Shown here piece after piece: positions 18,090-20,580 of a stretch of DNA of 24,000 nucleotides. The first letter of the stretch is position 1, and each line of letters starts with the position of its first letter. The DNA comes from Dehalococcoidia bacterium (lineage in GTDB: Bacteria > Chloroflexota > Dehalococcoidia > Lucifugimonadales > VXLM01), in contig OZ240223.1 in the NCBI GenBank assembly GCA_965197705.1, forward strand, positions 1,796,975 to 1,820,974, given 5' to 3'. The position numbers and the translations under genes are program-made. The notes beneath the pieces were generated by a model. The model worked only from the letters and a program-made list of their open reading frames with translations, was not told where the DNA came from and did not search any database.

Positions 18090-19772
18090 ATGACTACAGC
18101 TCGAAAACGACGGAAAAGCAACTCAGCTAAGGAATCGAGCGGGGACGGAGGCAACACCGCCTACCGCTCCGAGCTATGGAAGATGGCCGACGTCCTGCGA
18201 GGTGCTATGGACGCCGCCGAGTACAAGCATGTTGTCCTCGGCCTGATCTTTCTGAAGCACATCTCCGACGCCTTCGAGGAGGCCTATGCCCAACTAGAGA
18301 AGGAGATTGAAGAAGGCGCGGACCCTGAAGACCCCGACGAGTACCGCGCCCAGAGCATCTTCTGGGTGCCGCCGGAGGCGAGATGGCCGATACTCCAATC
18401 GCAGGCGCGACAGCCCACGATAGGCCGCGCCGTCGACGACGCCATGACCGCCATCGAGCGCGACAACCCCGCTCTGAAGGATGTCCTTCCCAAGGACTAC
18501 GCCCGTCCGGCCCTGGACAAGAACCGGTTGGGTCAGGTGGTCGACCTCGTCAGCAACATCAAGGTCGGCGGGGCCGATGCCCGCGCCACTGACGTGCTCG
18601 GCAGCGTCTACGAGTATTTCCTGGAGCAGTTCGCGCTGGCAGAGGGACGGAAGGGCGGCGAGTTCTACACACCTCGCAGCGTCGTGCGCCTCCTGGTGGA
18701 GATGCTACAGCCGTTCAAGGGGAGAGTCTACGATCCCTGCTGCGGATCTTCGGGCATGTTCGTGCAGTCGGTAGAGTTCATTCGCGCCCATGCCAGCGGC
18801 AACGGGAACGCCCGCCCCGGACTCCGATCCGGGGTCAGCAGGGCCAGGGGGGACATCTCCATCTACGGCCAGGAGTCGAACTACACGACGTGGCGCATGG
18901 CGAGGATGAACCTCGCGATCCGGGGCATCGAGGGCCGGATCGAGCACGGCGACAGCTTCCACAACGACCGACACCCCGATCTGAGGGCCGACTACATCCT
19001 CGCTAATCCGCCGTTCAACGTCTCCGACTGGGGCGGCGACCGGCTGCGCGACGACAGGCGCTGGGAGTATGGCGTGCCTCCCATGGGCAACGCAAACTTC
19101 GCGTGGGTGCAGCATTTTCTCTACCACCTCGCGCCGCGCGGCACGGCGGGATTTGTCCTCGCCAACGGGTCTATGTCGTCCAACCAGTCCGGCGAGGGCG
19201 AGATACGCAAGAATCTGATCGAGGCCGGTCTCGTCAACTGCATCGTCGCCCTGCCAGGCCAGCTCTTCCGCTCCACGCAGATACCGGCCTGCCTGTGGTT
19301 CCTGTCGCGGGCACGCGGTAGCGGAGAGCGCCGCGAACGTCAGGGCGAGACACTGTTCATCGACGCGCGCAAGCTGGGCCACATGATCGACCGCACCCGC
19401 CGCGACCTCACCCCGGAGGACATCGCCCGCGTCGCCGACACCTACCACGCCTGGCGAGGCCACGCCCGTCATTCCGGCGAAGGCCGGAATCCAGAGGGGG
19501 AAGGGGTGGTAGGCGATGACTACGCCGACGTCCCCGGCTTCTGCAAGAGCGCAACCCTTGAAGAGATACGCAAGCACGGCCACGTCCTCACGCCCGGCCG
19601 CTACGTCGGAGCCGAGCCGCAGCCCGACGACGGCATCCCCTTCGAGGACAAGATGTCCCGCCTCGCCACCCAATGGCGCGAGCAGCAGGCCGAAACGCAG
19701 CGGCTGGATGAGGAGATTGAGACGAATCTGGCGCGACTGGGATTTGGCGCCAATCGGGAGGATACGAGATGA
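18090..19772 (+). CDS. hsdM: Type I restriction-modification system methyltransferase subunit
   Basis: HsdM N-terminal domain ([32 protein letters not shown]), AdoMet motif [12 protein letters not shown], and catalytic ILANPPFN. The C-terminal region is [27 protein letters not shown]. Confidence 0.93.
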
Positions 19773-20077
19773 TTCCCGCGGTCGAGGAGCGAGCAGACGA
19801 GCTGGAACGTCTCTGTCTCATCTACGGCGTGCGATGGCTTGACCTGTTCGGGTCGGCCTCAACGGGTCTGTATAATTCGGATGAGAGCGACTTGGACTTC
19901 CTTGTCGAGTTCCAACCGGCGGCCCTCAATGCCTATGCGGACGCTTACTTTGGCCTGCTGGAAGCTCTCGTCAGACTCTTCGAGCGGCCTGTAGACCTCA
20001 TTGTGGAGTCGGCCATCAAGAATCCCTACTTCCTCCAGTCGGTGGAGCAGACAAGGACTCCCATCTATGAGGCTTGA
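19769..20077 (+). CDS. mntA: Nucleotidyltransferase-domain protein (MNT antitoxin of an MNT/HEPN pair)
   Basis: LFGSASTG...SDLDFLVEF is the minimal NTase GS-x(n)-DxD motif. The protein is 102 aa. Its ATG overlaps the hsdM stop (ATGA at 19769-19772). Confidence 0.85.
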
Positions 20078-20351
20078 GGCTCAGAAGTACCTATATGACA
20101 TCCAGCGTGCCGCCGGTTTGATACGAGAGTTCACCGACGGCAAGACGTTTGCGGACTACGAAGGCAACGCCATGCTGAGATCGGCCGTGGAGCGCCAATT
20201 CGAGGTCATCGGCGAGGCGATGGCCCAGCTTGCCAGGACCGATGAGCCGGTGGCTGACCGAATCAGCCAATATCAACGCATCATCGCCTTCCGCAATGTG
20301 CTGATTCATGGGTACGCCGATGTGGACGACCGGCTGGTGTGGGACGTGTGA
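20067..20351 (+). CDS. hepT: HEPN/DUF86 toxin (HepT-like)
   Basis: [19 protein letters not shown]... with the Rx4H motif in AFRNVLIHGY. I chose ATG 20067, which overlaps the mnt 3' end by 11 nt, rather than the track start at 20001. Confidence 0.85.
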   Translation: MRLEAQKYLYDIQRAAGLIREFTDGKTFADYEGNAMLRSAVERQFEVIGEAMAQLARTDEPVADRISQYQRIIAFRNVLIHGYADVDDRLVWDV

Positions 20352-20418
20352 TCCATACCAACCTCCCCAGCCTCTGTCGAGACGTTGATACTCTGTTGAG
20401 GGAGAAATAACCACGGAC

Positions 20419-20580
20419 CCGCAGCCCGACGACGGCATCCCCTTCGAGGACAAGATGTCCCGCCTCGCCACCCAATGGCGCGAGCAGCAGACCGAGGCGC
20501 AGCAACTTGACGCAGCCATTGAAGAGAACCTCAGGGACCTAGGGTTCGGTTCAAACTTAGGCGATACAAGCTCCAAGTGA
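20419..20580 (+). pseudogene. Orphan duplicate of the hsdM 3' end (last ~53 codons)
   Basis: 20419-20490 is identical to 19617-19688. It then continues in frame as a diverged tail TEAQQLDAAIEENLRDLGFGSNLGDTSSK*. An in-frame stop at 20386-20388 lies upstream and there is no start codon. Confidence 0.85.

Follow-up and report, generated by a model that had tools for sequence, protein, structure and literature searches.

We analyzed a 24,000-nucleotide stretch of contig OZ240223.1 from a Dehalococcoidia bacterium (hereafter the window), which carries a type I restriction-modification (RM) locus. Between hsdM, encoding the methyltransferase subunit, and hsdS, encoding the specificity subunit, lies a toxin-antitoxin (TA) pair consisting of a minimal nucleotidyltransferase (MNT) gene of the mntA type (mnt) and a HEPN ribonuclease gene of the hepT type, and the 3′ end of hsdM is found on both sides of this pair. 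We describe here the duplicated hsdM end, the small cassette that it brackets and the way in which the cassette may have come to lie there. The positions of the features are collected in Table 1.

The two copies of the repeat, at 19617-19688 and 20419-20490, are identical at 72 of 72 nucleotides, and at either end the very next base differs. An exact match of this length is too long to have arisen by chance in 24 kb, and no third copy was detected in the window with up to 12 mismatches allowed. The identical core sits within a longer stretch of ungapped, in-register homology (19614-19768 vs. 20416-20570; 120 of 155 positions, or 77%), giving a period of 802 bp. Both copies are in the hsdM frame and encode the same 24 residues (PQPDD...WREQQ). 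Copy 1 reads on in frame through a 27-residue tail, referred to as tail A, to the stop codon of hsdM, while copy 2 reads on in frame as TEAQQLDAAIEENLRDLGFGSNLGDTSSK (tail B) to a stop ending at 20580; past the identical block, 46 of 81 nucleotides match between the tails (57%). Copy 2 has an in-frame TGA just upstream (20386-20388) and its 5′ end lacks a start codon. A reading made earlier from the letters of the window (the sequence-only reading) had described this same arrangement, with a perfect repeat in one frame, diverged but homologous tails, copy 1 as the live end of hsdM and copy 2 as a startless orphan, and all of these points are borne out. A hidden Markov model of the hsdM tail matches the orphan at 20413-20553 (profile positions 8-54, 1.2e-22), and the distance from the orphan to hsdS is 73 bp. 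No sigma-70 promoter-like site was seen in or near the orphan on either strand, in a scan that does not cover the promoters of this phylum, and no terminator-like site was seen there on the plus strand. Minus-strand terminator-like matches near the orphan numbered 2, vs. 3.8 expected from shuffled sequences, and one of them (20414-20428) overlaps the orphan start.

The repeat begins exactly where the most conserved part of hsdM at the nucleotide level ends. This block is the sole part of the region 19400-20660 with blastn matches to hsdM genes of distant plasmids (Deinococcus, Azotobacter, Pseudomonas and Polaromonas), and these matches stop at query positions 216-217, corresponding to window positions 19615-19616. 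The sequence GAGCAGCAGGCCGAGGC is likewise kept at the nucleotide level in divergent hsdM loci.

The 802-bp unit encodes mnt and hepT alone, in that order and with an 11-nucleotide overlap. The MNT protein, whose gene sits between hsdM and hsdS, matches the PADLOC model PDC-S09 (PDLC04905) over residues 1-101 of 102 (2.1e-30) and has 4986 homologues at E<=1e-10; its translation contains the GS...DLD motif, and that of HepT contains the Rx4H motif as RNVLIH. The NCBIfam equivalog models NF047752/NF047751 gave 30.4 (MntA) and 43.6 bits, below their cutoffs of 60, and the pair in the window is a relative, not an equivalog, of NCBIfam MntA/HepT. Exact-protein look-ups of the window HsdS, the window MNT and the 100% identical P0001 found none on record as called genes. 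The hepT open reading frame (ORF), as called, stops at 20351. Compared to two relatives described below (L081 and L082), it has a 2-nucleotide insertion at about 20346-20347 (an extra GT or TG in GACGTGTGATCC), with the loss of the last 19 residues; the intact reading, of 113 amino acids, ends with a TAA at 20407-20409, as in L081 and L082. The insertion could genuinely inactivate the toxin, or it could be an indel introduced by sequencing. Since the intact hepT ends at 20409, the span between the repeats holds no more than tail A, mnt and hepT, plus a gap of 6-9 bp. The roughly 70 bp that had been placed between hepT and copy 2 in the sequence-only reading are in reality the end of hepT.

Tail A belongs to the cassette as much as to hsdM. 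The final hsdM codons (AAT CGG GAG GAT ACG AGA TGA) are at the same time the Shine-Dalgarno sequence of mnt, GGGAGGA, and its ATG, the two genes overlapping by ATGA. Free-standing mnt relatives, which have no hsdM in front of them, retain GGGAGGA-N5-ATGATTCC. Because the free-standing genes keep GGGAGGA-N5-ATGA, the extension of the hsdM tail can be understood as the mnt 5′ leader read in the hsdM frame; and since the ribosome binding site and start codon of mnt double as the last codons of hsdM, the cassette necessarily brings its own hsdM C-terminus. An ANREDTR-type tail with the ATGA overlap accompanies mnt in the window and in L081, L082, L083-092, L010 and L119-125, this type of tail being present wherever the mnt clade is found, and remnants of it lie upstream of mnt outside any RM locus in L093-102, L103-110 and L126. 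This is in keeping with the earlier proposal that the TA cassette supplies a replacement C-terminus for hsdM. The C-terminal region of HsdM contacts HsdS. The cassette gives HsdM a different C-terminal tail and couples its own expression translationally to that of hsdM.

Table 1. Features of the hsdM-hsdS region of the window and of one comparison locus
Feature	Position	Strand	Remarks
IS630-family transposase, two overlapping frames (HTH_32, then DDE_3)	16886-18060		Directly upstream of hsdM
hsdM, type I methyltransferase subunit, 560 amino acids	18090..19772	+	Pfam HsdM_N 2.4e-26, N6_Mtase 5.9e-102; live gene ending in tail A
Nucleotide-conserved hsdM block	19518..19616	+	Ends exactly at repeat start
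Direct repeat copy 1	19617..19688	+	72 bp exact; hsdM codons PQPDD...WREQQ
Tail A, cassette-owned hsdM C-terminal tail	19689..19772	+	Ends ANREDTR and stop; 95-99% identical to L081/L082
mntA-like antitoxin, minimal nucleotidyltransferase, 102 amino acids	19769..20077	+	Pfam NTP_transf_2 4.7e-10
hepT-like HEPN RNase toxin	20067..20409	+	Pfam HepT-like 3.1e-18, profile positions 1-105/120; frameshifted
Orphan hsdM 3′ fragment	20416..20580	+	Copy 2 (20419-20490) and diverged tail B (20491-20580)
hsdS, specificity subunit	20654..21997	+	Pfam Methylase_S; PADLOC Specificity_I 2e-110
ORF273, accessory gene overlapping hsdS stop	21994..22815	+	50% identical homologue behind hsdS in L024
hsdR N-terminal remnant, ~24 codons	22812..22885	+	LTTLTEADVEEVTLEWLAHG vs. 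L087 HsdR N-terminus MTTITEADVERAALDWLSALG
DUF1501 3′-end duplication	L094:5774-5834 and 6691-6751		Same signature as window, target unrelated to hsdM

Relatives of the window HsdM (loci L001-L082) share 66-93% of its amino acids. In two close relatives, L081 (HsdM 91% and MNT 97% identical to the window proteins) and L082 (93% and 96%, respectively), the order is again hsdM-mnt-hepT, followed by an orphan hsdM tail directly past the hepT stop (AAATAACCA...). Past the orphan, L081 has an ORF and an insertion sequence (IS), and L082 an AbiJ-like gene; hsdS follows in both. Relatives in which copy 2 lies within a longer intact gene, a layout that the sequence-only reading had named as grounds against an insertion scar, were not found. 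The similarity between the live and orphan copies of the 72-nucleotide segment differs among the three loci (72/72 in the window, 63/72 or 88% in L081, and 54/72 or 75% in L082), with 46/81, 44/81 and 52/81 matches, respectively, in the tail segment. At 19635 and 19668, both window copies have an A and all four copies of L081 and L082 have a G. The two L082 copies share a derived G at 19623 and 19679, and the L081 and L082 orphans share an A at 19622. The distances between copies form no separate live and orphan groups.

These alignments indicate an ancient duplication and subsequent concerted evolution within each lineage. The perfect 72 bp of the window are best explained as a recent gene-conversion tract, rather than as a pristine insertion scar, because the repeats of the relatives are diverged and two derived bases are common to both window copies. 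The tract would end at the residues REQQ because tails A and B are too dissimilar beyond this point to pair, its left limit being the start of homology. The repeat had earlier been taken for the direct product of a single crossover. This view is not supported by the comparison, since the repeats have diverged in L081 and L082 despite the same junction.

The cassette also has a history distinct from that of its flanks. In comparisons among the window, L081 and L082, identity is 82-92% in the body of hsdM and 81-91% in repeat copy 1, and rises to 95-99% in tail A, 95-97% in mnt and 94-98% in hepT. It then falls in the orphan, whose copy 2 is 93% identical between the window and L081 and 74% identical between either of these and L082; tail B is 56-67% identical and the sequences further downstream are unrelated. 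The jump in identity falls exactly between GAGCAGCAG, a motif that encodes REQQ and whose nucleotide sequence has been kept in divergent hsdM genes, and the following GCCGA. Since tail A, mnt and hepT exceed their flanks in identity, they have a younger common ancestor than the flanks, i.e. the cassette behaves as a separately exchanged block.

To see how widespread such scars are, we surveyed 80 hsdM loci fetched from genomes of Chloroflexota, Binatia, Latescibacterota, Acidobacteriota and other groups (66-84% amino acid identity). A downstream hsdS is present in 70 of the 80; it is adjacent to hsdM in 18 of these 70 and separated from it by a gap of at least 600 bp in 42. The native hsdM-hsdS junction reads ...LGFGG and stop, and the residues past LGFG are hypervariable among 120 close HsdM homologues, where they form recurring classes. 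The gene after hsdM almost always overlaps the hsdM stop, cargo genes by ATGA and hsdS ('LGMAGEW...') by 10-16 nucleotides. Orphan hsdM tails occur in about 8 of the 80 loci (L004, L010, L012, L016, L021 with two, L028 and L041, with L032 as a weaker case). The cargo between the live stop and the orphan is mnt-hepT in L010, a HigB/HigA-like pair in L012 and a 402-residue ORF in L016, while a protein of about 580 residues precedes the orphan in L004 and L021, and small ORFs precede it in L028 and L041. The left ends of the orphans vary, corresponding to tail-profile positions 1, 16, 19, 20, 22, 29, 32 and 35. All tails, whether live or orphan, reach into the start of the following gene, as in L028, where ATGA is shared with a HEPN gene, and in L016, where the overlap is with hsdS. 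The picture is one of 'tail-led' units that appear stacked behind hsdM, the newest closest to it.

The cassette found in the window was also present at other hsdM loci (L081, L082, L083-092 and L010), as had been anticipated. Loci with hsdM-mnt-hepT and no orphan were seen as well (L083-092 and L122-125), and L001 and L005 have more distant, tail-less MNTs in the gap between hsdM and hsdS. The hsdM 3′ end had been suggested to be a specific landing site for a small TA cassette. The first half of this suggestion fits the survey, in that the frequency of large gaps and of orphans marks the hsdM end as a recurrent insertion point; the specificity for a small TA cassette does not, as the same scar is found beside other cargo, where its boundaries differ.

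In several of these loci, single ORFs fuse a Polbeta/MNT nucleotidyltransferase to HsdS (L083:7310-8266, L090:7298-8320, L122:5642-7378, L028:12803-14416 and L021:15492-16958), and an HI0074-type HEPN gene often comes before them. The L021 ORF contains, between its MNT and HsdS parts, a remnant of the hsdM tail (15809-15877), suggesting that this fusion reads through an old orphan tail.

Copies of the cassette are also found away from RM genes. In Bryobacterales contigs (L093-L102 and L126; MNT 83% identical), mnt-hepT lies between DUF1501 and ACP_PD genes, with no type I genes nearby; in front of it is an hsdM tail that is decayed and about 52 codons long. In L094, L099 and L097, the DUF1501 3′ end, with its stop codon, is present as two direct copies of 61 nucleotides (59/61 identical) that bracket the whole insert. 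L103-L110 have an hsdM tail remnant upstream of mnt and, past an internally deleted hepT, a remnant recognized by eye as REQQAE-like. In L119-L121, an in-frame internal deletion has cut hsdM to 134 amino acids by joining its N-terminal 72 residues, at W, to the YVGA of '...YVGAAPQ...tail', and mnt-hepT comes next (L119:4600-5004, and likewise in L120 and L121). This shortened hsdM is still translationally coupled to mnt-hepT, and the locus has no other RM genes. In L119, the Bryobacterales copies and the W-type orphans, the hsdM sequence attached to the cassette begins within the same 17-nucleotide zone (between ...GGCCGC and TACGTCGGAGCCGAGCCGCAG), which is the 3′ edge of the most nucleotide-conserved hsdM block. 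As a control, we examined JGI loci with a more distant MNT (51-83% identical): 69 of the 71 informative loci have no hsdM tail upstream. The idea that an hsdM tail is a general trait of the MNT family was rejected on this basis, and the association with hsdM tails is thus a property of one subclade of a free-standing TA family.

Two further observations concern the state of these copies. An element of about 190 bp resembling a miniature inverted-repeat transposable element, with terminal inverted repeats GCCTGCATGTCTCACCAC, has inserted on the left-hand side of the cassette, at its very edge, in certain Bryobacterales strains (L095 at about 5614-5800, L097 at about 2690-2880), and in L097 its insertion accompanies the loss of most of the hsdM tail remnant. 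In L095-L098 and L100-L110, mnt is intact, with an identical protein in more than 20 contigs, but hepT has often been lost or has an internal truncation. In copies outside RM loci, the antitoxin outlives the toxin.

Taken together, these observations lead us to propose, with moderate confidence, that the repeat in the window is the homogenised core of a duplication of about 160 bp of the hsdM 3′ end around a 0.73-kb MntA/HepT cassette, and that the cassette entered by recombination anchored in hsdM. The anatomy of the locus, the inheritance of its layout, the exchange of the cassette as a block and the evolution of the repeats in concert are observed, and from them we infer a type of recombination and an order of events as follows. 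The incoming DNA would have recombined within the conserved 3′ part of hsdM, giving a left junction in register at GAGCAGCAG and a right junction that is non-homologous, just past the hepT stop, presumably through an illegitimate join. The resident hsdM tail would have been displaced downstream and would survive as a non-coding orphan attached to its old partner, hsdS. This layout would be older than the split between the window lineage and L081/L082, and later gene conversion in the window lineage would have erased the differences between the copies from the start of homology to REQQ. No dedicated recombinase would be required, and the same process could stack other cargo behind hsdM. In its present state, the 72-bp repeat would make the cassette excisable by RecA, with an in-frame hsdM ending in tail B as the predicted product. 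If joins are viable only upstream of hsdS, this would explain why many of them fall in the last 60-300 nucleotides of hsdM.

Several points weigh against this proposal. The step in identity at REQQ lies downstream of the left boundary of the orphan, so that a one-sided event is insufficient and a second (allelic) exchange, or a Campbell event, is needed. The clustering of three junction types within 17 nucleotides is predicted by a discrete intermediate and not by random illegitimate joins. The 61-bp duplication in Bryobacterales affects the 3′ end of an unrelated gene, which requires an extra step. Lastly, an empty site at the level of the allele, for which the sequence-only reading had specified hsdM with the copy-2 tail directly before hsdS, was absent from the collections searched. 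Precise excision across the repeat is predicted to yield an in-frame hsdM of 562 amino acids ending in tail B. With this product as query, the best protein was at most 91% identical and the tail-B extension was present in 0 of 120 C-termini; the exact tail-B pattern had 0 matches in metagenome contigs.

The sequence-only reading had proposed a circle instead. On this alternative, a molecule of about 0.8 kb, composed of hsdM 3′ homology, tail A, mnt and hepT, would have entered the hsdM 3′ end by a Campbell-type single crossover, and the TA cassette would be a discrete mobile unit with hsdM as its landing site, able to excise again across the repeat although it encodes no recombinase. A single crossover would leave exactly this architecture, with its 72/72 direct duplication and 802-bp period, and the sharp-ended block from tail A to hepT is 94-99% identical where hsdM is 82-92% identical. 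The start of the attached hsdM sequence within 17 nucleotides in W-type orphans, Bryobacterales copies and L119-121 fusions, and the hsdM-tail remnants still carried by the cassette outside RM loci, would both follow from such a molecule. A perfect repeat of 72 bp would be long enough for RecA-dependent excision. One copy of the repeat should then be derived from the donor and resemble the cassette in its similarity between genomes; yet copy 1 is only 81-91% identical and copy 2 is 74% identical to that of L082. The repeats are diverged in close relatives, so their perfect identity in the window is secondary; the orphans beside other cargo start at many positions; and the three clustered boundaries, close as they are, differ in their exact nucleotide. 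Neither a circle nor an empty allele was found in the collections searched. No integrase or recombinase turned up in Pfam scans of the main ORFs of the window, where the only such gene nearby is the IS630-type DDE transposase, and no attC-like or IS200/605-like hairpins were detected at the ends of the cassette (z-scores of -1.2 to +1.0 vs. shuffled sequences). Relatives of the cassette were not found on viral contigs, and matches on plasmids were limited to the conserved hsdM block. We regard the circle as possible but rather unlikely.

A broader version of the same idea can be offered only tentatively, and we would give it no more credence than the circle itself. In this version, the unit of about 0.8 kb made up of hsdM tail, mntA and hepT would be a discrete, non-autonomous cassette that loops out across its repeats, re-enters the hsdM 3′ ends of the family by homology with a working replacement C-terminus, and from time to time inserts at other sites, where it duplicates the 3′ end of the gene upstream. 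Tail-led stacking behind hsdM would then, more generally, be how defence genes come to lie inside type I RM systems.

The duplication could also have arisen in place, by tandem duplication of a segment that starts in the hsdM linker and stops where hepT ends. The distal TA copy would then have been lost or have decayed, with its leading hsdM-tail piece left as the orphan. Such a history would account for the orphans of L082 and L010, which carry the mnt-type tail extension and the first 12-15 nucleotides of an mnt-like ORF, and for homology that passes the stop codon (by 11 nucleotides in L010; the L082 repeat spans 167 nucleotides). It also agrees with the direct abutment of the orphan and the hepT stop, and with the resemblance of 'SNLGDTSSK' in tail B to a decayed 'ANREDTR' extension. 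However, even decay would be expected along a tandem copy, whereas tails A and B are 54-64% identical next to a 72-nucleotide segment that is 75-100% identical, so that a later replacement of the proximal cassette is needed in addition. Tandem duplication moreover leaves unexplained both the orphans beside unrelated single-copy cargo and the cassette copies outside RM loci. We consider this history improbable.

A further possibility reverses the order of events: hsdM-mnt-hepT would have been resident, and a segment consisting of an hsdM 3′ fragment, hsdS and ORF273 would have arrived later from another type I locus as a swap of the specificity gene, the orphan being the flank of the donor. The G+C content shifts across the locus in a way that could fit a swap (65% in the hsdM body, 69% in the repeat, 57-58% in the cassette, 53% in tail B, 55% in hsdS and 48.5% in ORF273, vs. 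61% in the housekeeping part of the window); hsdS genes, however, commonly have a lower G+C content than hsdM. The existence of loci with hsdM-mnt-hepT and no orphan (L083-092 and L122-125) also speaks for a swap, as does the difference in the hsdS behind the orphan among the window, L081 and L082. Against this order, the youngest common ancestry is that of the cassette and not of the hsdS unit. Nor is the hsdS unit newer than the split between the window and L081, since the two have in common the orphan (93%) as well as a related HsdS (78.5% over 303 amino acids). This makes the reversed order a doubtful candidate, of low probability. Finally, a chimeric join of strain variants through a shared k-mer, or another assembly or polishing artefact, might be suspected, as the window probably belongs to a genome assembled from a metagenome (a 4.2-Mb contig on record encodes an MNT with 100% identity) and the 2-nucleotide indel in hepT could be a sequencing error, but this was rejected as very improbable. 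Both the gene order and the hepT/orphan junction recur in L081 and L082, which were assembled independently; a chimeric join would not give rise to that junction; and at least 8 further genomes have analogous orphans.

How does recombination anchored in hsdM compare to known systems? Toxin or defence genes within type I RM loci are exemplified by PrrC in EcoprrI and the rlo genes in hsd loci of Campylobacter. The cassette of the window is likewise a pair in the same orientation between type I subunit genes, with a full-length match to PDC-S09. A 'guilt-by-embedding' survey (Payne et al. 2024; bioRxiv 10.1101/2024.01.29.577857) has catalogued candidates of this kind, PDC-S09 among them, and HEPN genes in R-M operons have been described (PMC3710099; PMC3632139). 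This literature deals with the identity of the embedded genes and the benefit that embedding might bring, and not with the way in which they arrive. Embedding is frequent in the HsdM family of the window, as Payne et al. report for type I RM systems generally (bioRxiv 10.1101/2024.01.29.577857). These authors left the origin of embedding open, with a 'genomic sink' idea only, and the word 'recombination' is absent from their main text (bioRxiv 10.1101/2024.01.29.577857). The duplicated hsdM 3′ end, the replacement tail borne by the cassette and the stacked orphan tails go beyond this literature. Our search of the literature, which had incomplete coverage and is weak evidence of absence, found no description of duplicated hsdM 3′ ends as insertion scars. 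Embedding itself is known; the structural signature that bears on its mechanism appears to have gone unremarked. With such scars, the way in which defence genes enter type I RM operons becomes testable, and the scars could be mined across thousands of genomes for the order of acquisition, donor lineages and recombination hot spots in hsdM.

MntA/HepT (MNT-HEPN) is a type VII TA system, whose biochemistry (Songailiene et al. 2020) is cited in PMC12988326. The pair of the window is similar in gene order, in the sizes of its proteins (102 and 113 amino acids) and in its NTP_transf_2 and HepT-like domains. It differs in that most relatives are free-standing, whereas the window subclade is translationally fused to the end of hsdM and, in the window, hepT is frameshifted.

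Islands that target the 3′ ends of tRNA and tmRNA genes carry a replacement gene end. The window resembles these islands in its flanking direct repeats, in the gene end borne by the element and in the displaced original downstream. In contrast to the islands, the unit of 0.8 kb is too small to encode an integrase, with none nearby in the ORFs scanned, and repeats of the window type are homologous gene ends with variable boundaries, diverged in relatives, rather than a fixed att core. Homology-facilitated illegitimate recombination, in which a homologous anchor is combined with an illegitimate join, is known from transformation in Acinetobacter and pneumococcus. It shares with our loci one in-register junction in a conserved gene, one non-homologous junction, variable right boundaries and foreign cargo brought in by the anchor. 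On its own, however, it yields neither the identity step at REQQ nor the clustered left boundary, and its action at these loci is our inference. TA cassettes are also common in chromosomal integrons. The unit in the window resembles integron cassettes in being small and promoter-poor and in carrying a TA pair, with apparent head-to-tail stacking and a conceivable circular intermediate; it differs in that neither of its junctions shows attC-like folding and no integrase or attI was found among the ORFs scanned.

The locus that received the cassette is embedded in the chromosome, with ftsA, ftsZ, ribonucleotide reductase, pdxA and proC upstream of it; the left neighbours of the RM locus differ in L081 and L082. 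The window HsdM scores 143 bits against the TIGR00497 hsdM model, below the equivalog cutoff of 242.75. The type I system within the window consists of M and S only: hsdR is reduced to its N-terminal remnant, and no other ORF with ResIII or HSDR_N domains is present in the window, although an intact copy could lie past 24000. ORF273 had zero matches in Pfam, PADLOC and NCBIfam; its homologue in L024 makes it a candidate for a conserved accessory gene of such loci. The RM locus is probably a degenerating defence island, as hsdR is a stub, hepT is frameshifted, an IS630-type transposase abuts hsdM and a palindrome lies inside hsdM.

This palindrome, GCCCGCCCCGGACTCCGATCCGGG, is a GC-rich sequence of 24 nucleotides inserted in frame at 18810-18833 and missing from L081 and L082. 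A related inverted copy lies in frame within the IS630-like transposase ORF (17835-17864), and the palindrome resembles a very small mobile element able to persist within coding sequence. A second hairpin-forming stretch in hsdM, CATTCCGGCGAAGGCCGGAATC (19470-19495), is present in L081 and L082 and absent from the hsdM of L083 and L010. Downstream, the motif GGTTGCAATCNGACG occurs three times with a 23-bp spacing at 22886-22971, starting exactly where the hsdR remnant breaks off; this array could be a group of binding sites, or could mark where an inserted element ends. It is followed by a truncated AAA-ATPase-like ORF (22972-23181) and, just past the RM locus, by a second TA pair, consisting of a Phd/YefM-like antitoxin and a PIN-domain toxin (23206-23933).

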